DNA of 57,329 nucleotides from Bacilli bacterium (GCA_017447305.1 JAFSNY010000039.1:1-57329); one strand, 5' to 3'; numbered from the stretch's first letter, positions 1,830-18,528 are shown. Numbers and translations are program-made. Notes: generated by a model from the letters alone, not told the origin.

Positions 1830-1919
1830 TCAAGGAAGAGCAACCTCAACTTCGACACCAGTGGAAAATTTAAACCTTAATCTATCTTTACTAATGACCA
1901 TCACCTAATCTACTGTCAT
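1830..1919 (-). pseudogene. C-terminal remnant of a large serine recombinase
   Basis: Minus strand reads MTVD*VMVISKDRLRFKFSTGVEVEVALP*, matching the typical recombinase tail (VDkVtV...lvFkFknGxEi). Confidence 0.55.
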
Positions 1920-2049: not shown

Positions 2050-2134
2050 AATTATTATTTTTTTTACTTTATATATCGCTATTTCCTATTTCTAATAGAT
2101 ATTATGTGATATCTTTTTATTTGAGATAATTAAT

Positions 2135-2854: not shown

Positions 2855-2889
2855 TATATTGTTACTAATTTCTATAACGAAGGTGAATT

Positions 2890-4272
2890 ATGATTAGAAA
2901 GAATTACAAAGTTTTTATTGCATATCATGGAACCTATAGTGAAAAAGGTTCAAAACAAGACGCTGAAGATTTAAGAAAATATCTTCTTAATCATGGTTTT
3001 AGTGAATCAGAGATTTTCTTTTTCCCTTCAAAAGAAGGTGGCGCCTATAAGGCCAATGTCATCGACGCATTATCAAGTCAGACTTTCATTCTTGTTTATA
3101 ATGAGAATTTAAAGCTTGAAGATAATGGAATAATCGATCACAAAGAGCATTATGAATTATGCACTGAAATCGATGCTTTTTATGCGCTGACACAGTTAGG
3201 GAATGATGTCGGTCAAAACGACGCGAAAGCGTTATATGTTGGCAACATGGACATCCACCATCGAGGAGACGAAAGCCTTCTCCATCCTTTGTTTAAAGAT
3301 ATTGCTCAATCCGCTACATCAAAAGAAGACAAAGAAACAGCTTTTGAAGGAATTCTTAAATGGATAAATATCCGTCTATCAACACAAGAAAAAGATGATA
3401 ATAACAATCAAATTAGAAATATAGAATTTTTCGATGATAATATCGAAGAAAGAAGAAGATTAGAAAGACAACAAAAATTTTTATTAAAATTTGATGCTTC
3501 TACCTATGATTATCATTTAAAAGACATGAAAAATATCAACATCCTTGATTTAGGTTGCTCTAATGGTAGAGGAGTGATGGAAAGACTTGGTAAAAGAGAA
3601 GGATTATATAATAGATTAATTGGTATCGATTCGAGTGCTTCTAGTATCGATGAGGCTCGCTATTACTACGATAATAAAAATATTTCTTTTTATGTTGTTG
3701 ACGTGGAAAGTGAAGATTTTTTACCTAAGATGCATGGAATAATGAAACAAGAAGGAATCGATGGTTTCGACTTTATTAACTGTCAATCCTTATTACTTCA
3801 TTTAAAGAATCCTTTTAACGTTTTAAAATCTGTTCGTTCGTTGATGAATGATGGAGGAATTATCTTTATTTTAGATGTTGATGATGGCTTGACATTAGCC
3901 TATCCAGATAACGATCATTTAATATCTCATCTATTTGATATTGATTATCAACTTCCTACTACTGGTAACCGTCACTGCGGTCGAACAATCCCTGGTCTTC
4001 TATCTCTTGCTGGATATAAAAATATAGTATTAGAAAAAGCAGGAATTAATACTTGTTCTTTAACTCACGAAGAAAGAGAAACGCTTTTCCGTTTTAATTA
4101 TGATTTCATTAAAGCGGGTTTAGAAAAAACCATTAAAAAAGATCCTGATAATAAAGAAATGCAAAATCATCTTAAATGGGTGATTAAAATGGGTGATGAA
4201 ATGGAAAAACGCTTTTACAGCGATTCCTTCTTCTTCACTTATGGTGATGTAATAATCACTGCAAAAAAATAA
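2890..4272 (+). CDS. TIR-like domain fused to a class I SAM-dependent methyltransferase
   Basis: N-terminus has KVFIAYH...IFFFP...FILVY...ELCTEI (TIR-like pattern). C-terminus has ERRRLERQ, ILDLGCSNG, IGIDSS, FDFI, LLHL and DGG (class I MTase motifs). RBS aaggtga. Confidence 0.7.
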   Translation: MIRKNYKVFIAYHGTYSEKGSKQDAEDLRKYLLNHGFSESEIFFFPSKEGGAYKANVIDALSSQTFILVYNENLKLEDNGIIDHKEHYELCTEIDAFYALTQLGNDVGQNDAKALYVGNMDIHHRGDESLLHPLFKDIAQSATSKEDKETAFEGILKWINIRLSTQEKDDNNNQIRNIEFFDDNIEERRRLERQQKFLLKFDASTYDYHLKDMKNINILDLGCSNGRGVMERLGKREGLYNRLIGIDSSASSIDEARYYYDNKNISFYVVDVESEDFLPKMHGIMKQEGIDGFDFINCQSLLLHLKNPFNVLKSVRSLMNDGGIIFILDVDDGLTLAYPDNDHLISHLFDIDYQLPTTGNRHCGRTIPGLLSLAGYKNIVLEKAGINTCSLTHEERETLFRFNYDFIKAGLEKTIKKDPDNKEMQNHLKWVIKMGDEMEKRFYSDSFFFTYGDVIITAKK

Positions 4273-4291
4273 TTAATAATTGGTTTATGAT

Positions 4292-4501
4292 TTATAGGTG
4301 ACGTAAACTCACTAGTGCTAACAAAACGAAATCAATACCACCGTCGCCACTTTTAGACGTCACCTCAACTTCAGACAATCCAATCGATTCTAAAAATGGC
4401 TTTAAAAATTCTTCGAAATCATAGCCAGTTTCAAATTGATGATAAAATTCATCAAGGATTTTGCCAAGTTCAGCTTTGCTTAATTCTTTAATTGTCCTCA
4501 T
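4292..4501 (-). pseudogene. Mrr-like restriction endonuclease, truncated
   Basis: FEEFLKPFLESIGLSEVEVTSKSGDGGID is the Mrr_cat start; similarity ends before the catalytic Q-x-K. Confidence 0.7.
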
Positions 4502-4980
4502 TGGTTGTCACCATTATTATTTTTTTCATCTTCCATCATTTCTTTGATGGCGGGAATGGACATTAATTGCTGATAGAAGTATTCCATGTTTGCTTTAGCA
4601 TCCTTTTTGCGCTCTTCAATTATCTCATCGTATGAAATTCCTAATATTTCACACAATTCTTTTCCTGTCATTACGTGCTCAATTTCAAAGGCGTTTTTAA
4701 AGCCTTTAACGATTTCTTCTTTGTTAGTTTGATTGAAACAACAAACGTAATAATCGGATACAAATGGTATTTTGGCACCTATATGGAGGTTGAATCTCTC
4801 AAGGTGCTCTTGCTCTCCCCATGCTTTTTTAGTATCAAATGAATCGCCATCTTTTAATTCGATGATTTTGCAAACTCTTTTTTGCTGAACGACAAAAACT
4901 AATAAATCCGGTTCGTTACCATCTAATTTATATGAGCTCTTTTTAAGAATTCTCTTGGTACAGACATATGTCCCGTAAAA
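4498..4980 (-). pseudogene. PD-(D/E)xK type II restriction endonuclease, C-terminal fragment
   Basis: EPDLLVF...IIELKDGDSFDTKK catalytic-type motif. No credible start or RBS upstream (the track's TTG start at 5052 looks spurious). Overlaps the Mrr start by 4 bp. Confidence 0.6.
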
Positions 4981-5052
4981 TGCATAAGTAATACTTTCAA
5001 TTCTATATACTTTGTATATAGATAAAATAAAAAGACATCTTGATGTTAACAA

Positions 5053-5124
5053 AATGTCTCATTTTTTCGAATGTCTCAATGTAACGACATTACTAGTAAA
5101 CACGACCAATCGTAACGACATTAC
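5053..5124. repeat. paired short repeats AATGTCTCA x2 and GTAACGACATTAC x2
   Basis: Copies at 5053-5061, 5070-5078, 5081-5093 and 5112-5124; AATGTC and GACATT are reverse complements. Confidence 0.6.
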
Positions 5125-5455
5125 ACTAATCTTTTACGTTTAATAATATGTAATCGAAATACTTCAAGGTAGAAAACGCATATCTTTTAGCAACGTATTC
5201 ATTTCCACCATGCTTGCTATTACATTCAGAAGTATCTGTGCTGTTGCTGTAATACTTCATGGTTATAACAAATTTTACACTGACAAATATATTATATGCA
5301 TGCATGTTTTACAAAAGTGCCATGCATTTAGCAAACTATAAGATTTTCTTCCTATATCTTTAACTATTATAGTCTAAAAAAACAGTAATATAAAAATGGA
5401 TATTTCTTACATCAAAATATGGAGTGTATATTATAACTTCTTCTATCTTTTTGCC

Positions 5456-7453
5456 TTATATAGGCATTTCTATTTCTGGGATATCAATAAATTGATATGA
5501 GTAATATTCTATTGCGCCATCATCATTTTTTATTTCAATTTGATCAAGTGTATCATATATAAATGTTATTCTAATCGTTTTGCCATTTAGATAATAGCAT
5601 CCTCCAACATCTAAAGTTTCATATGTAGCGTCATCATAATTATATGGTTTTAAACCTGATAAATTAAATAGCCAAGTACGGATATTAGAATCAAATGTCT
5701 TTTGCCATCCTTCATATTCGGGACAAGTATAACGATATCCTCCATTATCTATTATCTCAAAATAATTATCGACAAATTCATTTGTGTTATCAATATATGT
5801 TCTATAGTTGCCTTTATAGTCATTATATAAAACATGATACTCGTCAATAATTTGTTCATTTCTATATTTATAGTAGCTAATATTTATTTTTTTATCGGCG
5901 ATATCAGTTAAAGAGAAGTAGCTATTCCAAGCGTCTTTAGAAACACTGTATTTATCATCAATAAAGTATTTATATTGTGGATTGATACTTATTGATGTGA
6001 TATTTAAATCCATCTTCGTAAACACCCCATTAAAAATCATTCTTAAATTGAATGTATCATTAATAAGTTCTATATCTGCGCTATAGTGACCTAAATAAAT
6101 CTTTTCATCTTTATTAACATCATATAAACATTCAAAATCAATCCTAAATGCTTCATCGTCATAAGAGTTAAAAAGGGCAAAGCCAAGAAGAATTTGCTGG
6201 TTATTTAATACAAATTCTACGTAAAACACATTTTTTTCATTATCAATATCAATTACGAGAAATCCACCAGTAAAGATGTCGATGCCTTTTTCATTATCAT
6301 TTGGGAAGACGACATTACTAATCTCAATCTTTTTATGATTTAAGTAAGATTTTAATTGTTCTTCTGCGTGAGGATATTCATATCTATCTGTTATATCTTC
6401 TTTATTAGTTAATGTAGCAGTTACATCTACATAAACCACTTCTTCTTTCTTCTCGTCTTTAAGCAGCGCAAATTGAAGTTCCATATCATGTTCTTTAATA
6501 ACCGCGCCAGGAATATTAATGAGTCTATTTTCATCACTAGAAGGATCATAGTCTTTACCATAGCCCATTCTCTTATCAAAAGATATGTTAAATGATTTAG
6601 TGGCACTCTTATAGTCTTCACTAACACCAAAATATACTATGACGATATTTCTACTTAAGTTAGTAACTAACTGCACTTCGGTAGATGTATATTTATCACC
6701 AATTACATATAGATATGCATCTTTTAATTCATCTTCTATAACTTCTTTATATTCTGAAGTTTCCACTACAACATTACTTAATTTATGTTTTGTGTACCAA
6801 TATGGATTAGAGTTATCCATCACTTTTCCATCTGGAATATCCACTTTTGTTTTATCGTAATCACGCGCTTCTAAGATATAAGTTGTATCGTTAATAACAG
6901 CCTTAAAGCTTGTCACTTTTTTATTATAAAATTTAAATTCAACGTATTCTGCTTGTATACGCGTAGTAGATTGAGTCTTTTCATCTTTATAATTATCACT
7001 ATCGTAGTTAGTAGCGATATATGCTTCTTTTGTAGAATCATAACTAAACGCTTGATATTCAAATGTATGGATAATCGTGTAATCTAAAATATCCGCTTTG
7101 AAACCATCAATAGTTTTATATTCTTCAATAACCCAGCCTTCGTCTTCACTATTATAAATATGACGATATCCACCTTCATCTAATAGTTGATAATAATCGT
7201 TAATCGTATCTTTAATCTCTACATGAATCTTGCCGTTTTCATTTTTAATAACACCCGTAGAAGTAACCTGATTATTAATTAAAACTTGGCGGTCTAAGGT
7301 GAAATTGTTATCGCTAGAAAATAACCCACCTTGACTTATATTGACATTCCAAAAGTTTTCATCCACTTGACTAGGAGATAATGAAGAAAATGAACAGCCA
7401 CATAAAGAAGTTGATAAAAATAAGATTATTGGAGAAAAAAATCTAGATTTCAT
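5456..7453 (-). CDS. large lipoprotein with internally duplicated domains
   Basis: Lipobox LCGC; 665 aa; N- and C-terminal regions share motifs (GGYR, EGW). Confidence 0.75.
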   Translation of the reverse strand: MKSRFFSPIILFLSTSLCGCSFSSLSPSQVDENFWNVNISQGGLFSSDNNFTLDRQVLINNQVTSTGVIKNENGKIHVEIKDTINDYYQLLDEGGYRHIYNSEDEGWVIEEYKTIDGFKADILDYTIIHTFEYQAFSYDSTKEAYIATNYDSDNYKDEKTQSTTRIQAEYVEFKFYNKKVTSFKAVINDTTYILEARDYDKTKVDIPDGKVMDNSNPYWYTKHKLSNVVVETSEYKEVIEDELKDAYLYVIGDKYTSTEVQLVTNLSRNIVIVYFGVSEDYKSATKSFNISFDKRMGYGKDYDPSSDENRLINIPGAVIKEHDMELQFALLKDEKKEEVVYVDVTATLTNKEDITDRYEYPHAEEQLKSYLNHKKIEISNVVFPNDNEKGIDIFTGGFLVIDIDNEKNVFYVEFVLNNQQILLGFALFNSYDDEAFRIDFECLYDVNKDEKIYLGHYSADIELINDTFNLRMIFNGVFTKMDLNITSISINPQYKYFIDDKYSVSKDAWNSYFSLTDIADKKINISYYKYRNEQIIDEYHVLYNDYKGNYRTYIDNTNEFVDNYFEIIDNGGYRYTCPEYEGWQKTFDSNIRTWLFNLSGLKPYNYDDATYETLDVGGCYYLNGKTIRITFIYDTLDQIEIKNDDGAIEYYSYQFIDIPEIEMPI

Positions 7454-7665
7454 ATCTCTACTTTAATATAACCACGAAACATAAATAAAAGCAAACTAGA
7501 ATCCTAGTATCTCTTCTTATCCAAACTTGAAATCAATTTTTGTCTTTCCTAAAAATAATTATTACATGATTCAATAAATCACATTAAAAACTCGAAGATT
7601 CAAGTCATTTTTGAGCGTTTTTGATTGCAATCATTATTGTTTTTCTTCGTTGCGTAATTCTGGAT

Positions 7666-7713
7666 ATAGAGTGACAAATGGAGAGACAAATGTCACCCTA
7701 GATGTCACTCTAT
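7666..7713. repeat. nested inverted repeat of four GACA/TGTC half-sites
   Basis: ATAGAGTGACA (7666-7676) and TGTCACTCTAT (7703-7713) form a perfect 11-bp IR with an inner imperfect pair. Confidence 0.6.
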
Positions 7714-7785
7714 TTATATTTAATTCATTATAAAGATAATATGCCAATATTTATGCTGTGCAAAGATTTTTTGCCATCGAAATAG

Positions 7786-7816
7786 AAAAAAGAGACTAAT
7801 ATCACTATTAATCTCC
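7786..7816 (-). terminator. intrinsic terminator after element copy 1
   Basis: Minus strand GAGATTAATA-GTGA-TATTAGTCTC followed by a T run. Confidence 0.6.
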
Positions 7817-7829
7817 AATCTCTCATAAT

Positions 7830-7900
7830 GATGGCAGATTACTTAAGTAATACAAATACCATCTAAAAGTTGGGTTATATTCACCACAAGTGATACATTT
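7830..7900. repeat. ~70-bp bipartite element, copy 1
   Basis: GGCAGA...AAGTAATAC (7845)...AAAAGTTGGG...TATTCACCACAAGTGATAC (core at 7888). Confidence 0.75.
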
Positions 7901-7925
7901 TTAGCGTATCTTGGGATGGATTAAG

Positions 7926-8527
7926 TCATAGAGAATAAATGATTTTAGAAATGATAGCTCTTAATTTATCATTATTCCCATTAACACTTTCAAAACTAGC
8001 AACATTATTCTCTTCAGCACTGATTTTAGACCAGTCAAAGCCATATCCGCTTTTAAGACCAATATATCTAATAATTCTCTTTGGGTTCTACCATTGCCTT
8101 CTCTAAAAGGATGAAGAGCATTTATATCCGCTAAAAGATTAGTGACATAGTTAATGAAATCTTCTTTCGGAATGCCTTGAAAGTAGTTATCTCTTTTTAG
8201 ATTAGCAAAAATGTCTTTAGCGTAGGATTCGATGTATTGCGGAAGGCAAAACAAATTACCCTTTGCAATCGCAACAGTCCTTACCTTACCTGCCCAAAAG
8301 AATAAATCTTGAAACAAATAAAAATGAATCGCTTTCAAGTGCTCAAAATCTAGGTTGCCATCTATTGGTTTATTCAATAATTCGGATTGTCTCAAGCCAC
8401 TATAAAAACGTTCGACCTTATAAAAGGTTTCCTCGTCTTGTATATTTAGTTTATTTATTAAAACATCACTGTCTTGATAACAGTAGATGCCCTTTTCGTC
8501 TAAATAAGAATATTTATATTTATCCAT
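7926..8527 (-). pseudogene. Fic family adenylyltransferase toxin with a 1-nt frameshift after the active site
   Basis: Intact HPFREGNGRTQR motif. Adding one T near 8073 gives FIRYIGLKSGYGFDWSKISAEENNVASFESVNGNNDKLRAIISKIIYSL*, a typical Fic tail ending at 7926. Confidence 0.75.
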
Positions 8528-8690
8528 TAATTCCTAAACTGGCGTTGAGCTGTCTAAAAGCCTCTTCCCTAGTAATTTCTCCATCAACAACTTTAGATAT
8601 TAATTCAATATCAAAATCACTTAATGGCATACCTTCTAATGACATAGTTGCATTAACATCTTTGATTATTTTTTCAGCTTTTTTACTCAT
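8520..8690 (-). CDS. VbhA-like antitoxin (56 aa, not in the ORF track)
   Basis: MSKKAEKIIKDVNATMSLEGMPLSDFDIELISKVVDGEITREEA carries the (S/T)xxxEG inhibitory motif and GEIT; overlaps the fic start. Confidence 0.8.
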   Translation of the reverse strand: MSKKAEKIIKDVNATMSLEGMPLSDFDIELISKVVDGEITREEAFRQLNASLGING

Positions 8691-8747
8691 GGATTCATTA
8701 TAACATTATCAATCAAATATAATCATTATTTAATTACTTTAAAAACT

Positions 8748-8775
8748 AAAAAACAGTACCGATTTACGATACTGT
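8748..8775 (-). terminator. intrinsic terminator after element copy 2
   Basis: Minus strand ACAGTATCG-TAAAT-CGGTACTGT followed by a T run. Confidence 0.6.
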
Positions 8776-8782
8776 AATAAGC

Positions 8783-8856
8783 TTTGGGGGCAGAGTACTA
8801 AAGTGATACTTTTTGCCTTAAAAAGTTGGGGTGTATTCACCAAAAGTGATACACTT
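8783..8856. repeat. ~70-bp bipartite element, copy 2
   Basis: TTGGGGGCAGAGTACTAAAGTGATAC...AAAAAGTTGGGGTGTATTCACCAAAAGTGATACAC; cores at 8801 and 8844. Confidence 0.8.
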
Positions 8857-8865
8857 CATAATATT

Positions 8866-9071
8866 TTATGAATTGACAATCTTTTTTATTTGTTCCTTGT
8901 CTAATTCTTTGGCAGTTAGTAATGGAATTAATTTCCTAATTATCTCAACATCCTTGTCCCACCATTTAAGTTCTAAAAGAAACCTTCTTGTTTCTTTGTC
9001 AAAACGATATTTTTTTACTTGAGCAGGATTGCCTACAGCAACTGAATAAGGTGGTATATCTTAGTGACGAT
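8866..9071 (-). pseudogene. 3' remnant of a Vat/CatB-family (xenobiotic) O-acetyltransferase
   Basis: VT(K)DIPPYSVAVGNPAQVKKYRFDKETRRFLLELKWWDKDVEIIRKLIPLLT is the typical C-terminus of hexapeptide XAT proteins; no 5' half present. Confidence 0.75.
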
Positions 9072-9266
9072 GTTGTCAAAACGATAAAGACTCTTTTCTG
9101 AAATGTCGTATTTTTCTGCAGCCCACTTCTCTGCTTTTTCATAATCATCAGCGGTTATGATTCCTTTGTACATTATATTTTTCAGCACAAACACATGACA
9201 TAGGTAATTCATGGCTCGCTCTAAAATATCAGTGTCTTTGTATGACTTGAATTCTTCTTCGCTCAT
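9033..9266 (-). CDS. SHOCT-like small protein of the type found beside serine recombinases; 3' end chimeric
   Basis: KGIITADDYEK...EKY motif; strong RBS aaggagg; runs into the Vat/CatB remnant. Confidence 0.55.
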   Translation of the reverse strand: MSEEEFKSYKDTDILERAMNYLCHVFVLKNIMYKGIITADDYEKAEKWAAEKYDISEKSLYRFDNIVTKIYHLIQLL

Positions 9267-9319
9267 AGTGAAACCTCCTTATAGTTCCACTAATTGCTCA
9301 AAAAATCGTTACTTCAAAT

Positions 9320-9342
9320 AAAAAAGACGTTTTCAAACGTCT
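9320..9342 (-). terminator. terminator of the R-M operon
   Basis: Minus strand AGACGTTT-GA-AAACGTCT plus a T run, directly after the REase stop. Confidence 0.6.
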
Positions 9343-11046
9343 CTATAATGATGGTTTTATCGAATTAACAACATCTGTATATGCTTCAGGTGTTGATTGA
9401 ATTAAGTTTCTTAAATACTCATCAAATTGATTTTTGAAAGCGGAAATACGTGGTGATTTATCAATCATATCAACAAAAGCATCTATTGACACAGGGATGA
9501 TGTTTTCATTTTGATCATCCGCATAATATCTAAAGAAGCTAGCAACTCGAGAACTAACAAATGGCGAAATAACCATGCCCATACAGTCATCGTTGCTTCT
9601 AGCTCTTTCGGTTAAATAATGTTCGCGTACTCCTGTTGTCTCTCTTGTCATCATTTCGGTTGGACTTGTTAACATAGTAGGCTCCATGATAAAAGACATA
9701 TTCAAATATCTATATATTAAATCAGCTCTTCTACTTGGGGCATGATGAAGTGGATAACCATTTTCGTTATAAATGATGTTCGAAATCAAGCCAACTTTTC
9801 CATATGATTTTCCAAGAATCAATGCCAAAACATATTCTAGTCTTAATGGTTCATCAATATCGCTATACATGGAGCGACTATTAATTCTCCCACTTAAAAT
9901 CATGAGTTCTTTTCTTAAAGAGTTAAATTCCGCTTCTTCTATCGCCTGTGTTAAAACGTTTGTATAGAATTCGTTATCTAAATATTCTTCAACAGCAATA
10001 ATATCTGAATAATCTTCTATTACAACACCAAGTTGTGAAGCTTTTCTCTTTGCAATTTCAATTCTAATATCAAGACTTTCTTGCCAAGGAAGATGGATGT
10101 TTTCTAAAAATCTATAATATTCAGTTTGATTTCTAAATTCCTTAAAGGAATAATCTTTATATTTAACTAAAATTGATTTAACTTTTTCAATGTTATATGA
10201 CGAGAAATCATACATTGTATAAGTGGATCTGCCTCTTTTTGTTAAAAGACCAGTCATTTCGAATTTTCTAAACACATCATCTGGATACTCATCAGTTATA
10301 TTATCAAATTTTCCAGGAATCAATCCGAGTTCGTTGTAGCAATAATTCTCTAGGTATTTTTGATTAATTCTAAAATTAAATTTTTTTCTATATTTAATTA
10401 TTTCTTCGGCAGCTTTTTTATAGTCACAATCTTTCATGCTAAGGACAAACGCTCCAAATTCATGTTTAGCAATCCCGGTGTTGTCTCTTCCAAGTGCTCT
10501 CCAAAGTTTATTGACTTCATCGATTACAAACAAAACATTCAAAAAAGGTCTAGCCTTATTGTAATTTGCAGGTCGAGATGGATTGTTTGCATGCATCCCT
10601 ATCATTGCTTTGCAATATACATCAGTTGAATATTCTTCATTGCCAATTAAGTCCCACCCCAATTTAGTAATTGAAATCTTATTTAAACCATGTCGGACAG
10701 GTTCGATCATTAAAAAGCCCTGATCTTTTAATGCTCTAAACTGAGTCATAACGCGTCCGTTAAGTCCACACGCTTGTGGATTATCTCGAATTAATTGCTC
10801 CACTTCCGATCCAGTTAATTCAATGCCTTCTTCCAGTTTAAAACGGACGCCTTCTTGCATTCTAGTGAATCTATATATTCCATCAGCGACAAGTCGTGTC
10901 AAATAACTATGGAAAACTTCTTCTGTAAAAATCCGCCCATCAAAGCCTTTAAAAGCAATTAGAAATTTTTCATTTCTATTAGGGTTTCTAACAGTTGTGT
11001 TGATTGAGAAAATTTTAAATCCTGGTCTATTTCCACTAGTTCCCAT
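9343..11046 (-). CDS. AlwI-family type IIS restriction endonuclease
   Basis: N-terminal FSINTTVRNPNR; C-terminal RLEY...ADL...MEPTM...E catalytic pattern; adjacent to two MTases. Confidence 0.75.
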   Translation of the reverse strand: MGTSGNRPGFKIFSINTTVRNPNRNEKFLIAFKGFDGRIFTEEVFHSYLTRLVADGIYRFTRMQEGVRFKLEEGIELTGSEVEQLIRDNPQACGLNGRVMTQFRALKDQGFLMIEPVRHGLNKISITKLGWDLIGNEEYSTDVYCKAMIGMHANNPSRPANYNKARPFLNVLFVIDEVNKLWRALGRDNTGIAKHEFGAFVLSMKDCDYKKAAEEIIKYRKKFNFRINQKYLENYCYNELGLIPGKFDNITDEYPDDVFRKFEMTGLLTKRGRSTYTMYDFSSYNIEKVKSILVKYKDYSFKEFRNQTEYYRFLENIHLPWQESLDIRIEIAKRKASQLGVVIEDYSDIIAVEEYLDNEFYTNVLTQAIEEAEFNSLRKELMILSGRINSRSMYSDIDEPLRLEYVLALILGKSYGKVGLISNIIYNENGYPLHHAPSRRADLIYRYLNMSFIMEPTMLTSPTEMMTRETTGVREHYLTERARSNDDCMGMVISPFVSSRVASFFRYYADDQNENIIPVSIDAFVDMIDKSPRISAFKNQFDEYLRNLIQSTPEAYTDVVNSIKPSL

Positions 11047-11056
11047 ACAAAAGCTC

Positions 11057-11932
11057 CTAAAAATTTGTAATAAGCACTTCTATCGAATCTGTGATGTTAA
11101 CTTTTTGATAATTGGCGTTTCTATATTGCCTTTTAAGATAATGGATATGATATTTTTCAGCCCATTTTATAAGTTCTTCGTTTTTCTTTCCGTTGGAAAT
11201 AAATACATTTGAGAGAGCTGCTTTAATGCCTGCTTGTGATAACTTATCAAATAAAGTAAATAAATTTAAATCATCTATTTGAGACCATTCACCATTATAT
11301 GGTGCGGTTGTAACCAAGTATGGAGGATCAAAATATACAAACGAATTTTTAGTACAGCAATCATAAAGACTTCTATCTAGATAATCTTTTGTAGAAAAAA
11401 GGGCTTTATATTTCTTGCTTTCATTGCAAAATGCGATTGTTTTTTCTCTCAGCGATTTTGAAAAGTCAACCTTGCCAACAGGTACATTAAATAATCCTTT
11501 TTTGTTAAATCTTAAATAATGATTAAAGCCATATATTATAAGTGCAAAGAGTTTTTTGGTGTCTTTGTCGGAATTGTAATCCGACTTAAGCCTATCAAAT
11601 GGAGCCTTATTATATTTGGACAAACCCTCATGTTTATATTCGATGTAATGATTATCAAGATTTGTTGAATCAGTGAAACCATATTCTTCTATTATTTTAT
11701 TCATTGATTCAATAATAGATTCCCCACTATTCTCATAGAGGTATTTGATTAGTTCGATTGCATGATTGTTAATGTCGTTACAAATGATTTCTTTTGCGGA
11801 ACTATTAAACGAAACCATGCCACTACCTGCAAACGCATCAACAAAAACATCGATATCTTTTGGTATGATATCGAGTAATTCTTTTAGTGATTTTGCCTTG
11901 TTACCAGGATAATTCAACGGAGATATCGCCAT
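11057..11932 (-). CDS. Dam-family (alpha class) N6-adenine DNA methyltransferase
   Basis: SPLNYPGNK, DAFAGSG, RFNKKGLFNVPVG, YFDPPY and EVLITN motifs. Confidence 0.9.
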   Translation of the reverse strand: MAISPLNYPGNKAKSLKELLDIIPKDIDVFVDAFAGSGMVSFNSSAKEIICNDINNHAIELIKYLYENSGESIIESMNKIIEEYGFTDSTNLDNHYIEYKHEGLSKYNKAPFDRLKSDYNSDKDTKKLFALIIYGFNHYLRFNKKGLFNVPVGKVDFSKSLREKTIAFCNESKKYKALFSTKDYLDRSLYDCCTKNSFVYFDPPYLVTTAPYNGEWSQIDDLNLFTLFDKLSQAGIKAALSNVFISNGKKNEELIKWAEKYHIHYLKRQYRNANYQKVNITDSIEVLITNF

Positions 11933-12632
11933 CTAATCTTTCCACCGATTTCCTGTAATAGTTCTCATCTATCTCAGTAGAAACAGAGTTTCTGCCTGTT
12001 AATTTGCATGCTAAAGCAGTTGTTCCAGATCCACTAAATGGGTCAAAAACAACATCATTTGGATTTGTATGAACTTTTATAATTTCTTCAATTACTTCAA
12101 CGCTTTTTTGAGTTGGGTGAATTCTTCTTTTGCCACCAAGAACAACACCACTCTCATATACTGGTTTTAAATATGATTTGTCAGATGGTTTATTAAATGT
12201 CCATCCTTTTTCGCCTTTGACTGCCCAAATTGCAACTTCAAAGTCCGTTACATATCGACTATTAACATTGCGAGGCATTGGGTTTTTCTTTTCCCACCTA
12301 ATAAGGTCTTTAATTACAAAGCCTTCTTCAACAAGTGCTTCAACAAGATAAGAAAGATTTTTCCAATCGTTGAATATGATCATACAGCCACCTTTTTTAA
12401 CGACAGGTGCACATTTTTTTATCCATTCTTTTTGGTCGAATCCATAATCCCATTGGCCATAGTTCATTCCTGATCTTCCCATGTTAGAAAAACCAAGTTG
12501 GTGAGTTCTGCTTACGCAATAAGGTGGATCAGTAATAATTGCATCAACAAAAAGATGCTTATCAACCATCTCTTTTACTGCTTTTTTATAATCACAATTA
12601 ATAAGAATTGTTTTGTTACTCACACGAATCAC
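11901..12632 (-). CDS. beta-class N4/N6 DNA methyltransferase
   Basis: ITDPPY precedes HPTQK and FDPFSGSGTT; GTG start with RBS aaggtgga. Confidence 0.9.
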   Translation of the reverse strand: MIRVSNKTILINCDYKKAVKEMVDKHLFVDAIITDPPYCVSRTHQLGFSNMGRSGMNYGQWDYGFDQKEWIKKCAPVVKKGGCMIIFNDWKNLSYLVEALVEEGFVIKDLIRWEKKNPMPRNVNSRYVTDFEVAIWAVKGEKGWTFNKPSDKSYLKPVYESGVVLGGKRRIHPTQKSVEVIEEIIKVHTNPNDVVFDPFSGSGTTALACKLTGRNSVSTEIDENYYRKSVERLDGDISVELSW

Positions 12633-12725
12633 TCCACCTTAACGTTTGGAATACTTCCCAAATGTATATTAATTATATTTCAGGTGGGTTTTATATGCAA
12701 CGCAGATGTGTATTACAATGCTCAC

Positions 12726-13037
12726 ATGAACGTATTAGAAAAAATAAAGAAAATGCAAGCGGAAAGAGGTTGGTCTACCTACAAGCTTGCATATGAATCA
12801 GGCCTAACTCAGTCAACTTTATCTAACATGTTTTCTCGTGGAACTTGTCCAACAGTAGATACTTTAGAAAAAATATGTGAAGCTTTTGGCATTTCTTTGT
12901 CTGATTTCTTTGATGACAATGACAAAGTAGCTCATGTTTCCGAAGAAGAAATGGAATTATTAAGTAAATATAGAGTGCTTACCGATAAAGAAAAAGAAGC
13001 TGTCAGATCAATGGTCACAGCTTTATCTCATAAATAA
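12726..13037 (+). CDS. XRE-family HTH regulator, divergent from the R-M operon (possible controller)
   Basis: MNVLEKIKKMQAERGWSTYKLAYESGLTQSTLSN...PTVDTLEKICEAFGISLSDFF; ATG at 12726 preferred over the track start. Confidence 0.85.
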   Translation: MNVLEKIKKMQAERGWSTYKLAYESGLTQSTLSNMFSRGTCPTVDTLEKICEAFGISLSDFFDDNDKVAHVSEEEMELLSKYRVLTDKEKEAVRSMVTALSHK

Positions 13038-13059
13038 TAGTTGTCCTTAATTCTATACC

Positions 13060-13079
13060 GAGGCAATGCCTCTTTTTTT
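13060..13079 (+). terminator. terminator after the XRE gene
   Basis: GAGGC-AAT-GCCTC followed by T7. Confidence 0.6.
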
Positions 13080-13105
13080 ATTTAACTTGAAAACTATTAA
13101 CAGTT

Positions 13106-13168
13106 AAATCGTGTTCTAGTTAAAGTTCAAATAGTTTTCTAGTTGAAACAAATCGTGTTCTAGTTGAA
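13106..13168. repeat. three 19-bp direct repeats
   Basis: AAATCGTGTTCTAGTTAAA (13106), AAATAGTTTTCTAGTTGAA (13129), AAATCGTGTTCTAGTTGAA (13150). Confidence 0.7.
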
Positions 13169-13264
13169 CCAATTATTACGGAGAGAGGATTTGAACTACC
13201 TCTATTCTTGTCAAAAAAGCATGAAAAAAGGCACTTTTTGGTTATTTTAGTGCCTAAATTATCA

Positions 13265-13337
13265 ATTGGGAGCAGACTGCCAAATTGGTACTCTTTGTCG
13301 AAAAAACGGGGGTGTTCACTACCAAAGTGATACACTA
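13265..13337. repeat. ~70-bp bipartite element, copy 3
   Basis: TTGGGAGCAGACTGCCAAATTGGTAC...AAAAAACGGGGGTGTTCACTACCAAAGTGATACAC; followed on the minus strand by an AGGCACT/AGTGCCT hairpin plus T run (13224-13255). Confidence 0.75.
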
Positions 13338-13439
13338 CTATTCAATTTCTTCATAGTAATGCACTAGTATGTGGTTAACAAGGGCAATCAGCGAACAAAT
13401 TGAATACTTCACAAATCTGAGGACCAGACTATTTTTATT

Positions 13440-14918
13440 TTAGTTTTGTTTGCAGACATCATCTTTCTTCAAATAATCGCTAATAAGAGGAATTCCATAA
13501 AATCTTCCTGAATACGCAAGCCTTAATTCATTGTTGGTAGAATACTTATCCAAAGCCTCTATACTTTTCTTTATGTCTTCTTCATTTTCCCAACCAAACA
13601 ATGTGTAAAAATCTTTCGAAAGAGATTTCGATTTCAAAGAGAGGGCGATTCTCTTTATAAATGACACATTGTTATCGTTGAGATAGCAATGAGATAAAGC
13701 AAACCAATAATTGCCAGTTAATGAAATAGATATATTAGTCAGCAAGCAATCGGCATCAATAAATTCATTAAAACTTAAATATTTTGCTTGGATATGCCTT
13801 CTCCAATATTCTGAAAACCCAGAATAATAGTAAGCTCCTTTTGCTTTGTCTTGATGAAGTTCCCTACCTAAATTCTCCGAGACATTGTAAAGATTGTTGT
13901 ATGTCAAGCAATAAAAAGCATCCTTAAAATACATAAGTTCTGCCGAAACAGAATAGTTACCAATACTAATATAAGGGGTATTGGTAAGATAAAAGATTGA
14001 TTGGTAGTTTTTGCTCGCTAAAAGTAGAGCTATTGTTTCTACAAACAATTCATGCAAAACGATTTTCGCTAAAGAAAAGAAAGACTGTTTAGAGGTTTTC
14101 ATCTCATTTGTGACTTTAAGTACATCAACGAAAAAACAGTGCAAAGCGTTTCCTACATCATCTTTATATTTTATTTCGGACAGAAATGCTAAATATGGGA
14201 TTTTAAAAGAATCAAAAAGGCTGTAGTTTTTTTCAAATTCTGAAGCGTTATAAAAGTCAAAATACTCAATATTCTCACTAATTTTAGTAAAACTGTCTAA
14301 AAGTTGATTAAAAGAAATAGTCAGCGCACGCTTATCACCAATCTCCTTTTTGTTTGCTTTGAATGTGTTGACAATTATCTGCGACTCTGCATTCATTGGG
14401 TTCGACTCATCAACCCATTCTGGTTTGGTTCCTAGCGGGTTTTCTATATATTTTTCATTCCCGTAAAGTGCTTTTACTAATTCAAAATAGCCTTCTTCAA
14501 AATTTGAATCTTCTGACAAATCAATCCATCTTCTTTGTTTTAGATATGTAGGAATACAAGAATCTACTTCTTCTCCTCTTTTCTCAAACAAAACAGGTAT
14601 AAATTTGGTGTTTTCAACATTCGAATATACTTCACCGGAGATGATTTGAGTTTCCTTTCCAGCTCCACCTGTTCTAGAATCAGCTTTTTTCTTGTAATCA
14701 GGAGACAACAATATCAAAACATTAGTTATCGTTGAATCGTTTACGCATTTTTCCATAAAATTATTCATATCATTGCCAAGTTTCATGTGAAATTGATCAA
14801 GAACAACATCAACTCCATCACCTCTAAGTCTCATCGCGAACTCGACAACTCTATCAATATATTTTTGATTGCTCCAACAATATGAAATAAACACTCTTGG
14901 TTTTTCTATCTTTGCCAT
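13440..14918 (-). CDS. SEFIR/TIR domain protein (anti-phage defence-like)
   Basis: PRVFISYCW, GVDVVLD, FME, YKKKADSRTGGAGKETQIIS, KFIPV and IPTYL form the bacterial SEFIR signature; long helical C-terminus. Confidence 0.85.
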   Translation of the reverse strand: MAKIEKPRVFISYCWSNQKYIDRVVEFAMRLRGDGVDVVLDQFHMKLGNDMNNFMEKCVNDSTITNVLILLSPDYKKKADSRTGGAGKETQIISGEVYSNVENTKFIPVLFEKRGEEVDSCIPTYLKQRRWIDLSEDSNFEEGYFELVKALYGNEKYIENPLGTKPEWVDESNPMNAESQIIVNTFKANKKEIGDKRALTISFNQLLDSFTKISENIEYFDFYNASEFEKNYSLFDSFKIPYLAFLSEIKYKDDVGNALHCFFVDVLKVTNEMKTSKQSFFSLAKIVLHELFVETIALLLASKNYQSIFYLTNTPYISIGNYSVSAELMYFKDAFYCLTYNNLYNVSENLGRELHQDKAKGAYYYSGFSEYWRRHIQAKYLSFNEFIDADCLLTNISISLTGNYWFALSHCYLNDNNVSFIKRIALSLKSKSLSKDFYTLFGWENEEDIKKSIEALDKYSTNNELRLAYSGRFYGIPLISDYLKKDDVCKQN

Positions 14919-14947
14919 ACCTTTCTCCTTTTTAACATAAAATCATT

Positions 14948-15730
14948 TTATATTTTGGTTTCTTCCATAACCTTAAACATCATGTCGTGGTTATATTCAA
15001 AGCCCTTTTCTTTTAAGTTTTTAATATCGTAGATAGCCGCTTTCGGCATTTTTATCCGCCTTCCGTTAACAGTTAAATATTTCCAACGGCCCATCCAAAC
15101 TACATATTCGGCTTTTACGTTCTTTATAATACTAAGGAATTTGCTATCAATGAAACAATTGTGAGGGTAATACTTTCCTAATGGTTCTTTTCTATTTAAA
15201 TCTTCTTTATCAATTACTTGAACATAGCTATTAGACTCATCGCAAACAAATAGAACGCAAGTTTTGCATTTAGGATAATTGCTCCTATATGAATCCACTT
15301 TATTAGAATGGTTTATCAACACTCTTTCAAAGTTCTTTAAATAACCTGTGAAGTTAAAATCTTCGTTATTAAAAGTATTCGGAACAAAATATAAGCTTGC
15401 ATTGTATTTATTCCTGTAATCCTTTCCCATAAGTTTTTTCATGTAAGCATTTTCCTTTTGAAACGCGTTCGCTATTTTCTTTCCATTTTTTTCATTAACG
15501 CAATCATCAATTCTCATAACATCCATCATAATTTTGTGCTTTTCGTTGTGAAAATCTGGGGGAAGACTATCTTTGGAGGAAGAATCAATCCAAGATTTAG
15601 CAAATAAAAAACTCTTTATAAGTCTTTCAATACGAAAACAATGGAAAAAGTTCCCGAAATAAGCGATTTTTCCATAAAGGATCGACTTAAAATTCTTGAT
15701 TACAAAACTTTCGTTATCCATTGTCTCCAT
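14948..15730 (-). CDS. hypothetical protein, possible PD-(D/E)xK-like nuclease
   Basis: 260 aa with LPPDF...MMDVMRIDD and VLFVCDES; 29 bp upstream of the SEFIR gene. Confidence 0.6.
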   Translation of the reverse strand: METMDNESFVIKNFKSILYGKIAYFGNFFHCFRIERLIKSFLFAKSWIDSSSKDSLPPDFHNEKHKIMMDVMRIDDCVNEKNGKKIANAFQKENAYMKKLMGKDYRNKYNASLYFVPNTFNNEDFNFTGYLKNFERVLINHSNKVDSYRSNYPKCKTCVLFVCDESNSYVQVIDKEDLNRKEPLGKYYPHNCFIDSKFLSIIKNVKAEYVVWMGRWKYLTVNGRRIKMPKAAIYDIKNLKEKGFEYNHDMMFKVMEETKI

Positions 15731-15816
15731 AGGTTAGTTATCCTTTGTTAAACAAAAAATAGTATAAACCATTAAGGCAATTGCTACAGCAATAAAATAG
15801 CGATACAGGTTTTTAG

Positions 15817-15855
15817 TTATAACCTGGAGGTCGGTGTAATCCGTCTCTGCAACCA
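15817..15855 (+). pseudogene. degenerate 3' half of a tRNA-Met, inverted relative to the intact tRNA
   Basis: ATAACCTGGAGGTCG...GCAACCA versus ATAACCTGAAGGTCG...GCAACCA in the intact tRNA. Confidence 0.5.
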
Positions 15856-15857
15856 TT

Positions 15858-15886
15858 AAAAAAACGCTGATTGCATCAGCGTTTTG
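15858..15886 (-). terminator. terminator after tRNA-fMet (likely bidirectional)
   Basis: AAAACGCTGAT-TGC-ATCAGCGTTTT hairpin with an A/T run. Confidence 0.75.
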
Positions 15887-15894
15887 TGGACAAT

Positions 15895-15970
15895 TGGTTG
15901 CGGGGGAAGGACTTGAACCTACGACCTTCAGGTTATGAGCCTGATGAGCTGCCAACTGCTCTACCCCGCG
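15895..15970 (-). tRNA. tRNA-fMet (initiator, anticodon CAT)
   Basis: 76-nt cloverleaf CGCGGGG...CTCATAA...TTCAAGT...CCCCGCAACCA with C1:A72 mismatch, A11-U24 pair and encoded CCA. Confidence 0.95.
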
Positions 15971-16011
15971 ATGTGAGGTGACCAAGGCGTGTTTGATCAC
16001 CGTTTTCGTAA

Positions 16012-16188
16012 TTATTTACGATTTTTTCTTCTAGCGTTTTCAGATTTGAGTTTTCTCTTTAAACCTGGTTTAAGATAGAAATCTCTTCTCTTCGCTTCTT
16101 GAATGACTCCCGCTTTGTTAACTTGACGTTTGAAACGACGGAGGGCATCATCTAAGGATTCATTCTCACGAACGACGATCTTTGGCAT
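16012..16188 (-). CDS. rpsU: 30S ribosomal protein S21 (not in the ORF track)
   Basis: [42 protein letters not shown]; RBS aaggaggtg. Confidence 0.95.
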
Positions 16189-16267
16189 TTTTGCTCACCT
16201 CCTTCAGCGGTTCTTTTAACACGCAATAGAGAATATACCATTATCAAATCCCTATTGCAATATAAAA

Positions 16268-16903
16268 TTATACAATTTTTACTCCGTTTGAAGTGCCAAT
16301 TCTATTTGCGCCAGCTTCGACCATAGCGAGTAGATCTTCGTGGGTTCTAACTCCGCCACTAGCTTTGACACCCATATCTGGTCCAACGGTTTCTCTCATA
16401 AGTTTGACATCGTGAACAGTCGCACCGCCTGTTGAGAATCCAGTTGAGGTTTTGACAAAGTCAGCGCCAGCGTTTTTGGAAAGGAGACATGCTCTAACTT
16501 TTTCTTCATCAGTTAATAAACATGTTTCAATAATAACTTTAAGAACTCTCTTTCCAGCAACCGCTTTTAATTCAGCAATTTCCGCTTCGACATAGTCATC
16601 ATTACCTGCTTTAAGCATTCCGACGTTGATGACCATATCAATTTCATCCGCACCTTCTCTAATGGCTTGTTGAGCTTCTTCCACTTTCGTTTTTGGAAGA
16701 TTCATTCCAAGTGGGAATCCGATAACTGTGCAAACTTTAACATCGCTTCCTTTTAACGCTTCTGCAGCGAGTGGAACGTAGGCAGGGTTAACACAGACGG
16801 ACATGAAGTCGTGTTCTTTTGCTTCTTCACAAAGCTTTAAAATTTGTTCAGGAGTAGCATCTTGTTTAAGCAAAGTATGATCAATAAGCTTGTTGTATTT
16901 CAT
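16268..16903 (-). CDS. deoC: deoxyribose-phosphate aldolase
   Basis: [35 protein letters not shown] and RIGTS motifs. Confidence 0.97.
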
Positions 16904-16960
16904 ATATCATTCCTTCTTTTCTACCATTATTATAAAAATAAAGTGGCCTTTCGACCATCT

Positions 16961-17149
16961 TTATTTGCTTTCAGATTTCTTTTCAATTTGAACCTTGCCA
17001 GCGTAATAACCACATTTTGGGCAAACATGGTGGGATTTGATCATTGCGCCACAATTTGGGCAAGTGACTAAACCAGCGGCTTCGAGTTTGAAATGGGTTC
17101 TTCTTGATCTTTTCTTAGTTTTAGAAATTCTTCTTTGTGGAACTGCCAT
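16961..17149 (-). CDS. rpmF: 50S ribosomal protein L32
   Basis: [19 protein letters not shown] with CPNC/CPKC zinc ribbon. Confidence 0.97.
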
Positions 17150-17250
17150 ATTAGTTCGTCCTCCTAAACAACGAGGAAATTATATTCTTATACATAAGGA
17201 GTGTCAATAAAACTTTAGACAAGTTCTAAAAAATTTAAAATAATACTGAT

Positions 17251-18528
17251 TTATTCTTGTTTTTTATATGTAGTTTTCACTACTTTTCCTACGAGATTAT
17301 CCTTGTTTTTGAAGGAAATATCTAGATAGTTGGTGGTGTGCCCTCTATTTATAGAGGTTTTTTCGTCATATTCTTCAACGAGAACATCAACTTCATGACC
17401 ATCGAACCTTTCCGTATATGCATCCCATAATGTTTCTGATAAGTCTAACAAAACATTAACTCTTCTTTTTTTGACATCTGGAGCGATTTGATTTGGCATT
17501 CTAATCGCTTTAGTGTTTTCTCTAGCGGAGAATGGGAAAACGTGAAGCATATTGAAATCACATTTTTTAATAAATTCATATGTTTCGTTAAATTCTTCTT
17601 CGCTTTCTCCTGGGAAACCAACAATAACATCTGTGGTCAAGGCAATATCAGGAATCTCTTTTCTTATCTTTCTTAGTGTCGATAAAAATTCGTCACAGTT
17701 ATATTTTCTGTTCATTCTTTGGAGAACACTTTTGGAACCGCTTTGAAGAGGGATATGTAAGTGTTTAGCGATGTTCTTTCTTTCTTTAACAAGAGTGATT
17801 AATCGTTCATCAATTTCTGATTCTTCGATTGAAGAGATACGTAAAGAATACAGTCCTTCTAATGAAGAAAGGTCATCAATTAAATCAGAGAATTTATAAC
17901 CTACTAAATCGTTTCCGTATCCTCCGACATGAATACCGGTAATAACGATTTCTTTATATCCTTTTTCAATGAGATACTTAGCTTCATCGATGATGTTTTT
18001 TGGATCTCTAGAACGAGATTTTCCTCTTGTGAAAGGAATAATACAGTAAGAGCAGAAATTATCACAGCCATCTTGTATCTTTAAATATGCGCGAACATTT
18101 TCGTTATAGGAAGTAATACCAAGTTCTTCATAAGAAAAGAAGCGACTTTTATCTTCAGTTGCGTCTATTTGTTGATGATTTCTATGAAATTCATCAATAT
18201 AGTCGGGAATTAAGTGACGATTTGATGTTCCAACAACGATATCCGCTTTAATGTCATTGATGATAAAATCATGGCTTTTTTGTGAATAGCAGCCCATGAC
18301 ACAGATAATCGCATTTGGATAATTATTTCTTAATTTACGAATATGCTGACGTGATTTTTGATCCGCGGTCGCGGTGACTGAACAGGTGTTAATTATGGCA
18401 ATTCCCACTTCTTCATTTGGGTGGTCTTTTGCTTCTTCATGACCCCTCTTAATTAATAAAGAAGCGAGTGATTGACACTCGTATGAATTAACCTTACATC
18501 CCAAAGAAATAATTTTAAATTTCATCAT
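17251..18528 (-). CDS. mtaB: tRNA t6A37 methylthiotransferase MtaB
   Basis: SLGCKVNSYE, INTCSVT, KIQDGCDNFCSYC, HIPLQSGS and HVFPFS motifs; exact start uncertain (18534, 18528 or 18525). Confidence 0.9.
   Translation of the reverse strand: MMKFKIISLGCKVNSYECQSLASLLIKRGHEEAKDHPNEEVGIAIINTCSVTATADQKSRQHIRKLRNNYPNAIICVMGCYSQKSHDFIINDIKADIVVGTSNRHLIPDYIDEFHRNHQQIDATEDKSRFFSYEELGITSYNENVRAYLKIQDGCDNFCSYCIIPFTRGKSRSRDPKNIIDEAKYLIEKGYKEIVITGIHVGGYGNDLVGYKFSDLIDDLSSLEGLYSLRISSIEESEIDERLITLVKERKNIAKHLHIPLQSGSKSVLQRMNRKYNCDEFLSTLRKIRKEIPDIALTTDVIVGFPGESEEEFNETYEFIKKCDFNMLHVFPFSARENTKAIRMPNQIAPDVKKRRVNVLLDLSETLWDAYTERFDGHEVDVLVEEYDEKTSINRGHTTNYLDISFKNKDNLVGKVVKTTYKKQE

Follow-up and report, generated by a model that had tools for sequence, protein, structure and literature searches.

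A repeated composite element at gene-module boundaries behind a tRNA-Met gene in uncultured Bacilli and its possible role as a cassette joining site

In integrons, the boundary of a cassette lies inside the GTTRRRY core at the 3' end of its attC site. Staphylococcal cassette chromosome (SCC) arrays are the work of large serine recombinases (Ccr) and carry a junction repeat of ~15-18 bp at the end of rlmH, and other tandem islands are targeted to tRNA or tmRNA genes, as in the accretion of streptococcal cis-mobilizable elements with integrative and conjugative elements and in the ssrA islands of Dehalococcoides. A preprint describes the tycheposons of Prochlorococcus as tandem tRNA-targeted islands (bioRxiv 10.1101/2020.12.28.424599), and Weinberg et al. 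(2017, PMC5737381) describe the DUF1874 motif as a conserved non-coding motif of consecutive intergenic regions, without a linked integrase, which they discussed as possibly an unusual attC. Here we analyze a stretch of 57,329 nucleotides from a Bacilli bacterium (GCA_017447305.1 JAFSNY010000039.1:1-57329), hereafter the window, in which a non-coding element recurs at the boundaries of gene modules behind a tRNA-Met gene. An earlier note on the window, made from its letters alone, had read this element as a multi-subsite recombination site of a serine recombinase. Related loci are numbered L, genomes G and metagenome runs X.

Our preferred reading, a serious possibility that we stop short of calling probable, is that the element serves as an att-like joining site, comparable to the attC of an integron or to the attR of a tRNA-targeted island. 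Each mobile module would carry one at its 3' end, in an array whose growing point is the 3' end of a tRNA gene, mostly the one for initiator tRNA-Met. A site with accessory binding sites is preferred because the direct repeats are phased, the orientation is strict, the distal end is defined and the tail is equivalent to the end of a tRNA. The window holds three copies of the element, which align across ~75-80 nt with a mean column identity of 74% over 135 columns.

7826-7905, minus strand: element copy 1, distal end 7829/7828; contigs of runs X3 and X4 part from the window at 7830
8782-8861, minus strand: element copy 2, distal end 8785/8784
13264-13342, minus strand: element copy 3, distal end 13267/13266, gene strand GTGTATCAC...CTGCTCCCA; the match of one metagenome contig ends at 13265

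A profile of these copies, searched against the whole 1.59-Mb assembly of 88 contigs, returned the same three only (E = 1.8e-21, 3.9e-18 and 5e-17), the next-best match standing at E = 0.47. The alignment and this search bear out the earlier note's three alignable copies in one orientation. The core AAGTGRTAC occurs four times in the 57-kb window, always within copies (0.52 expected), and none of 100 shuffles reached four occurrences.

The element is read here on the minus strand because the genes adjoining all copies lie on that strand. Beginning at the stop codon, the order is unit 1, spacer, unit 2, a tail ending in YCA and, 5-15 nt further on, a rho-independent terminator. Unit 1 consists of GTATCACTT, 3-5 nt, a partly complementary arm and then ACCCCAAC; the spacer is T/A-rich, reading TTTTTAGGGCAAAAA or ...GGGGGTATTT; unit 2 is GTAYCACTTTAGTnnTCTGC; and the tail has the consensus TCYGCNNYCA. 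The earlier note had described two cores 43, 43 and 42 bp apart, a spacing that holds on reading the sequence. These cores share one motif in direct order at 42-43 bp and are therefore repeats of a single unit, that is, direct repeats of ~28 nt (GTAYCACTT...) about four helical turns apart. Copy 2 has the imperfect inverted repeat ascribed to the second core (GTGTATTCAC / GTGATACAC), whereas copies 1 and 3 show a weaker form of it. Among the positions that never vary across 37 copies are GTATCACTT in unit 1 and, in the spacer, CC and TTT, and copies on unrelated modules have exact stretches of at least 30 nt in common.

In all loci examined a same-strand gene directly precedes the element, and a terminator follows after 5-15 nt. 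Within the window, as the earlier note had seen, each copy lies just 3' of a minus-strand gene or gene remnant (Fic, a Vat-like relic and the SEFIR/TIR gene, copy 3 itself abutting a Bro-N/Fic relic), and each is followed by a terminator-like hairpin, of which that at 8775-8753 is detected by a terminator scan and the other two are read from the sequence. The initiator tRNA anchoring, the tRNA-end-like tail and the identity of the cores as direct repeats of one unit escaped that note.

The array starts at a conserved pair of genes.

16012-16188, minus strand: rpsU (ribosomal protein S21), an open reading frame (ORF) identified by sequence reading, the conserved gene upstream of the array
15895-15970, minus strand: tRNA-Met (CAT), called by Rfam (tRNA, 62.7 bits) and ARAGORN, 3' end ...TCCGCAACCA

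We take this tRNA-Met to be of the initiator type from its C1:A72 mismatch, and we propose the 3' end of its gene as the primary insertion site. A same-strand tRNA gene is found 1-6 kb upstream of the first element in 14 of the 16 loci that have at least 3 kb of upstream sequence or in which a tRNA was found, the location at a tRNA 3' end being that of tRNA-targeted islands. Twelve of these tRNAs were called by ARAGORN and two (L052 and L085) by a tRNA profile; the exceptions are L046 and L079. Most anchoring tRNAs belong to the rpsU-tRNA-fMet pair, with one other CAT tRNA and one tRNA-Leu, and tblastn with the rpsU protein placed the same gene upstream of the tRNA in six related loci. A weaker copy of the element, in L083, lies downstream of a tRNA-Thr.

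The tail consensus agrees with the tRNA end TCCGCAACCA at 6-7 of 10 positions; the match is exact only in L082, whose element tail is TCCGCAACCA, the last 10 nt of the L082 tRNA. Other tails include TCTGCCCCCA, TCTGCTCTCA, TCTGCTTTCA and TCTGCCATCA, and they are followed by terminators of the same families as those after the tRNA. No tRNA of the window genome ends in TCTGCCCCCA. The terminator that follows the tRNA in L040, L081 and L082 stands after elements in L084, L043 and L023, and the L040 module that begins at the tRNA end is one position farther out in L023, where an additional gene and a variant element precede it. A stretch of 68 nt past the tRNA of L035 recurs past the element (66/68), and in L013 ~40 nt past the tRNA recur past the first, variant element. 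Such repetition of the post-tRNA stretch would be expected if a circle of terminator, genes and element had been inserted at the tRNA end. The window array also contains two partial tRNA-Met copies, one inverted and one direct, both degenerate. The element was considered as a pseudo-tRNA and rejected, since neither ARAGORN nor Rfam calls a tRNA there.

These features resemble tRNA-targeted islands in growth from a tRNA or tmRNA 3' end, older arrivals pushed outward, partial tRNA copies and integrase-less remnants. Unlike the present arrays, such islands repeat the 3' part of the tRNA and hold an integrase gene. Here the junction is a 75-nt composite of which only the 10-nt tail pattern is tRNA-like, the modules measure 1-5 kb, and no integrase was found in ~40 loci.

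The modules behind these junctions change places between genomes of different genera. DNA identity between carrier genomes is 66-75% in the core upstream of the tRNA and 87-99.7% in the modules, for example 99.7% over 994 nt between L026 and L040 and 95% over 877 nt between the window and L025. We compared 37 distinct contexts, leaving out the same-contig duplicates L003, L023, L025, L030, L031, L037 and L041 and six truncated or poorly anchored copies. Among the 496 pairs judged on both flanks (a further 170 had a flank too short for judging), 21 had only the upstream gene in common, five only the downstream module and none both. The VbhA-Fic module stands in different neighborhoods in the window, L020, L025/L079 and L086, as does a module of an ORF of no assigned function with a 249-aa protein in L031/L084, L043 and L018. 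An AAA_14/DUF4143 ATPase module is found in L013, L035 and L017 and as a gene-less remnant in L079, an Na/H exchanger module in L016, L025, L026, L040 and L028, and a Zn-dehydrogenase module in L015 and L022; further cargo comprises TIR proteins, GmrSD, GNAT, flavodoxin, glycosyltransferase and helix-turn-helix (HTH) membrane proteins. At 3300-3480 of L079 (gene sense) there is an 'empty' module, in which the promoter region of AAA_14/DUF4143 is joined straight to its element and the gene is gone.

Similarity between contexts breaks within the element and its terminator, with 24 of 26 breakpoints falling between -88 and +58 of the YCA end. Finer mapping of crossovers by change points is blurred because elements and terminators are alike in all copies. 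L026 and L040 are identical as far as ...CTGCCCCCA, and with the very next base unrelated sequence begins; judged by eye the divergence comes right past the tail in L026/L040, L013/L035 and window copy 1/L020. Window positions 4500-17500 were also compared with contigs from four gut-metagenome runs, joints with sides of 20-26 letters being ignored. Matches of variant contigs end at 7830 and 13265, at most 2 nt from the distal end of copy 1 or copy 3; other contigs part at 7786 and 8747 (the distal ends of two terminators), at 15894/15895 (the tRNA end) and at 9062. The earlier suggestion that the element marks module boundaries is upheld by these comparisons, since breaks in gene content between genomes and between metagenome samples fall at it. 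A joint in run X5 that 'goes back 857' was considered as a circle and rejected; with ~87 unplaced letters, another context is its best reading.

If the element is a joining site, a recombinase acting in trans would bind the repeated units as accessory (arm-type) sites, and strand exchange, either of the tRNA end with an element tail or of one tail with another, may take place at or just past the YCA end. A circle made up of terminator, genes and element would then enter at the tRNA and shift older modules outward. Candidates for the enzyme are the resident XerC/XerD-like pair, encoded in the window genome on contigs C63 and C75, or the integrase of a transient helper element.

Several observations weigh against such a joining site. 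By eye, L020/L028 and L023/L043 diverge past GTATCACTT of unit 1, and in window/L025 and L026/L043 agreement starts inside the terminator; some breakpoints therefore lie at the first unit or inside or past the terminator and not at the YCA end. Breakpoints at the ends of a common homologous block are also expected from homologous recombination. Neither an excised circle nor an empty site was seen in the assembled contigs, which cannot show rare forms. No inverted copies of the core are present in the window and no second arm in the modules, the copy number is low (1-3 per genome), and the genomes were all assembled from metagenomes, where repeats interrupt contigs. The 57-kb contig carries no PF00239 or PF00589 gene; the large serine recombinases found in L046 and L079 are not directly beside the element; and in carriers G007 and G185 the only two tyrosine recombinases score as Xer-like, with nothing that ties Xer to the element.

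Alternatively, the element could be a portable block of homology, a conserved 3' module of any origin, with the tRNA, elements and terminators serving as anchors for the swapping of cassettes by RecA-dependent homologous recombination after DNA uptake or conjugation and no dedicated enzyme. We regard this explanation as unlikely, while noting what speaks for it: the exact stretches of at least 30 nt that unrelated modules share, breakpoints at several places (the first unit, the YCA end, inside or past the terminator), and the absence of a linked recombinase, with some carriers having only Xer-like tyrosine recombinases. It leaves unexplained how unrelated genes came by one and the same element, with sharp bounds and a single orientation, why the end of the tRNA is copied in the tail, why variants unrelated in sequence keep the plan of repeats, tail and terminator, and why a duplicated post-tRNA stretch flanks the first module in L035 and L013.

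Those variants occur at junctions in the same arrays and consist of 0-4 direct repeats with a period of 21-23 bp, a tail ending in CCA and a terminator. Their types are four repeats of CTGTAACATTT (22-23 bp period), three of GTACCAYTTT, three of GTGTCGG, two of GTYCGGA and one single unit. The variants are unrelated in sequence, and each is followed by the tail TGTATYA...CCA and a terminator (L013, L018, L023 and L079). L079 has at least six such junctions within 9 kb, and a one-unit form of the element is found in L025/L079. The TGTAACAT variant, which in L079 sits past the terminator of the gene itself, was found by exact search in 2 of 151 family genomes, both carriers of the element. In the window, at 5060-5140 on the minus strand, a 59-aa ORF is followed by two TAATGTCGTTAC direct repeats ~31 bp apart, GAGACAT twice and a terminator, the same plan of repeats then terminator without a recognizable tail.

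The position between stop codon and terminator on the gene strand would also suit a cis-acting RNA of the 3' untranslated region, perhaps a signal for processing or stability or a CCA-ending mimic of the acceptor and T arms of tRNA, which would travel with mobile genes while recombination was incidental. In keeping with an RNA, both units are imperfectly palindromic, the second can be enclosed by a GGGCA/TGCCC pairing, and G-U pairs are found on the gene strand only (pairs 16-33 and 50-79). RNAalifold on 12 copies gave no consensus fold on either strand, however, and a three-helix model pairs 75.4% of cells in 37 copies against 74.6% in shuffles, 43 of 500 shuffles being as high, with a covariation score below the shuffle mean. 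Folding-energy z-scores are ordinary, mostly about -2 to +1 with a full range of -4.0 to +2.4. Across the window only tRNA passes the gathering thresholds of Rfam 15, so that the Rfam match by which the earlier note would have been refuted is absent, and from 7700 to 9000 nothing comes within ~20 bits of a gathering score (best E = 0.64). A structured RNA was rejected on these four counts (Rfam, RNAalifold, fold energies and covariation), and the small RNA or 3' untranslated region which the earlier note had offered as its alternative finds no support in covariation. One variant element, moreover, stands downstream of its gene's own terminator. We consider the RNA explanation improbable.

The element is confined in its distribution. 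Recurrence in relatives, on which the earlier note had staked its reading, was borne out by a covariance model built on the three copies. It detects the element in 7 of 101 relatives and in 15 of 151 genomes of the same family (10 of 48 genera, with 1-3 copies each), the window genome being counted both times. Species-representative genomes, scanned for an exact pattern, yielded 25 stretches, of which the model confirmed 15; all 15 are labelled uncultured Bacilli, Bacillales or Erysipelotrichaceae, and several come from ruminants. The model did not confirm the remaining 10, which belong to other phyla, although one of them gave a weak match. A pattern scan of metagenomes gave 21 stretches, 13 of them confirmed. 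Phage, plasmid and viral collections held no element (three pattern scans of viral contigs and two BLAST searches), and since these gave chance seeds only, an origin from phages, plasmids or viruses was rejected. The 16-nt core strings appear in no paper found and 10-mers only in unrelated primers, and the literature searched on cassettes, tRNA-Met, Erysipelotrichaceae and integron-like systems of Firmicutes does not describe the element, although supplements (e.g. of PMC5737381) may hold motif lists.

This distribution bears on a further explanation, that the element is a small non-autonomous transposable element, of IS200/IS605 type or a rolling-circle miniature, inserting in one orientation upstream of terminators. 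The discrete ends GTATCAC... and ...YCA, the two similar hairpin-capable units in direct order, the one-unit form in L025/L079 and the occurrence of the same gene with different versions of the element in L020/L028 and L023/L043 are consistent with transposition. Against it stand the 1-3 copies per genome, all in one type of locus beside a tRNA gene, with none seen elsewhere in the chromosome. The window genome likewise has its three copies in one array and no inverted core copies in the window, unlike a dispersed intergenic repeat or miniature inverted-repeat transposable element, which would be scattered in many copies with terminal inverted repeats or target duplications. No empty site for the element alone was seen, there is no match in the phage, plasmid and viral collections, and no transposase was noticed beside the copies, though the loci were searched for recombinase homologues only. 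We think transposition of this kind quite improbable.

The enzyme that would act at the element was sought among the recombinases of the carriers. When all 17 recombinases of the window genome were compared by tblastn with ~40 related loci, the only homologues were the large serine recombinases in L046 and L079; the window genome's tyrosine recombinases matched none of these loci, a further eight included. The L079 enzyme is 59% identical to one encoded on another, element-free contig of the window genome. Homologues of the L079 enzyme, present in 7 of the 15 carriers and in 38 of the 136 non-carriers, do not track carriers, and the co-occurrence with large serine recombinases for which the earlier note had proposed a test is not supported. 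PF00239 has no match in four of five further carrier genomes that are 93-96% complete (G148, G167, G185 and G136).

The earlier note's own version, a res-like multi-subsite site of a serine recombinase that built the array, is very improbable in the light of these searches. Unit 1, unit 2 and many terminators are imperfect palindromes with a GTATC core, three within ~130 bp, as such a site might have, and the L079 array starts beside a large serine recombinase gene that is followed by repeats of the inverted tRNA end. The cognate serine recombinase is nevertheless lacking on the window contig and in the four carriers named, homologues of the L079 enzyme occur in some carriers and also in some non-carriers, and many terminators past the element are unrelated hairpins. 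With no linked recombinase and several carriers without a serine recombinase, the serine-recombinase idea fails. SCC arrays are alike in having modules behind the end of a conserved gene, a short site at every junction and some modules without a recombinase; they are driven by Ccr, whereas most carriers examined here are without a serine recombinase.

Side by side with these recombinase genes some repeats were noticed. L079 (1858-1960, gene sense) has four GGTTGCA direct repeats beside its large serine recombinase gene, in a region that also holds a degenerate tRNA-Met 3' fragment, and L046 (2860-2900) has two TGGTCGC direct repeats beside its own; GGTTGCA and TGGTCGC are the reverse complements of the tRNA-fMet 3' ends GCAACCA and GCGACCA. 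In genome G000, the first 6 kb of contigs C10, C18, C69 and C80 hold four copies of a module with large serine and tyrosine recombinases, with two large serine recombinase genes on C10, C69 and C80 and one on C18. The position of all four modules at the beginning of a contig suggests that they belong to a mobile element whose repeated presence interrupts the assembly.

Returning to the att-like joining site, the array invites comparison with integrons. The two are alike in having one site at the 3' end of each module in one orientation, independent recombination of modules, a fixed insertion point at the head of the array, a cargo of toxin-antitoxin, defense and resistance genes, and families of sites that differ in sequence on a common plan. 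The element itself is unlike attC, being two direct repeats and a tail instead of a single imperfect hairpin with R and L boxes. Its boundary follows ...YCA on the gene strand and not a GTTRRRY core, the sole GTTGGG lying mid-element on the opposite strand. With halves in direct order, no consensus fold and a hand-drawn structure that pairs like shuffles, the element is not attC-like in sequence or fold, as the earlier note had also held for the sequence. No intI, attI or Pc is present here, PF00589 being unmatched on the window contig; the array is headed by the end of a tRNA gene, the hosts are Bacilli, and the modules, unlike integron cassettes, bring their own terminators and often several genes. 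The DUF1874 motif has another sequence and fold, and Rfam scans of the window match no family for the element. The element fails the attC tests of fold, core and intI, and it is without the integrase and the plain tRNA-fragment repeats of classic islands. To our knowledge integrons have not been reported in this bacterial group, though no search was made on that point.

It is conceivable, and we hold it as a doubtful possibility, that these arrays are a new cassette-capture system of small-genome gut and rumen Bacilli, in which the 3' end of the initiator tRNA gene serves as attI, the sites are composites of phased repeats, a tRNA-end-like tail and a hairpin in several families, and recombination is left to an unlinked enzyme, perhaps the Xer pair or the integrase of a helper element. 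Such a system would be the functional counterpart of integrons. If the element is a true recombination site, the arrays would make up a cassette system that has an essential tRNA gene as its anchor and lacks a linked integrase, and its phased direct repeats with a mimic of the tRNA end would form a third design beside the attC hairpins of integrons and plain tRNA-fragment repeats. It would also explain the trade of defense, toxin-antitoxin, resistance and transport genes across genera of uncultured gut bacteria with small genomes. The tRNA end and the element tail offer a DNA substrate with which the enzyme might be found, and the element offers a sequence marker for mobile cassettes in rumen metagenomes.

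The remaining features of the window array, from the tRNA outward, are as follows.

15857-15886, minus strand: terminator hairpin directly after the tRNA, read from the sequence as AAAACGCTGATGCAATCAGCG then a T-run
15818-15855, plus strand: inverted degenerate copy of the tRNA-Met 3' half (nhmmer with a tRNA-Met profile, E = 0.005, and pairwise alignment)
14948-15730, minus strand: 260-aa ORF, first gene of module A, without a Pfam match
13440-14918, minus strand: TIR/SEFIR protein of 492 aa, module A (Pfam TIR_2 7.1e-17, SEFIR 4.2e-12)
13338-13355, minus strand: relic, the last codons of a Bro-N/Fic gene, recognized as a common flank in alignments; the intact gene in L019 and L081 has 290 aa
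13218-13256, minus strand: terminator after copy 3, read as AGGCACT...AGTGCCT and a T-run, with a homologue after the L014 element
13176-13199, minus strand: direct degenerate copy of the tRNA-Met T-arm and acceptor 3' end (pairwise alignment, 21/25 matches)
12498-13037, plus strand: Cro/C1-type HTH protein, module B (Pfam HTH_26 1.9e-11, HTH_3 3.4e-10)
9343-12632, minus strand: restriction-modification (R-M) module, by Pfam an N6_N4 methylase (11901-12632), a D12 methylase (11057-11932) and an AlwI-type endonuclease (9343-11046)
9344-9323: terminator after the R-M endonuclease, from the terminator scan
9033-9266, minus strand: 77-aa ORF, SHOCT_2 below threshold (22 bits, curated cut-off 24)
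8869-9060, minus strand: relic of a Vat-like hexapeptide acetyltransferase, its C-terminal 64 aa (tblastn, 95% identity to residues 150-213 of the intact 213-aa L042 gene)
8753-8775, minus strand: terminator after copy 2, from the terminator scan, of the ACAGTATCG...CGGTACTGT type common to many loci; a variant contig parts at 8747
7961-8690, minus strand: module C, VbhA antitoxin (8520-8690) and Fic toxin (7961-8527), by Pfam
7786-7826, minus strand: terminator after copy 1, read as AGAGA..TCTCT and a T-run; contigs of X3 and X4 part at 7786

Copy 3 directly abuts the last 18 nt of the lost Bro-N/Fic gene and not the SEFIR gene. The HTH protein is probably the controller of the R-M module. 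The end of that module, which comprises the HTH gene and the 77-aa ORF as well as the methylases and the endonuclease, meets the start of the Vat relic at ~9060-9062, inside the acetyltransferase gene, where contigs of X5 and X7 break at 9062; there is no element at this junction, and the R-M module therefore came by another route. The intact Vat-like gene of L042 matches Pfam Hexapep.

The VbhA-Fic module, present also in L020, L025/L079 and L086, has 92-95% nucleotide identity to other loci. The Fic ORF of the window (7961-8527, 188 aa) loses its similarity to the L020 and L086 homologues past the region of the catalytic motif; the homologous C-terminal residues can be read in another frame, and one metagenome contig has a one-base indel there. 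The window fic looks frameshifted, or the assembly in error at this point. Elsewhere, contig C79 of genome G000 (1890-8240) carries ~10 tRNA genes without an encoded CCA, one of them unassignable by ARAGORN, in a cluster that looks like the phage type.

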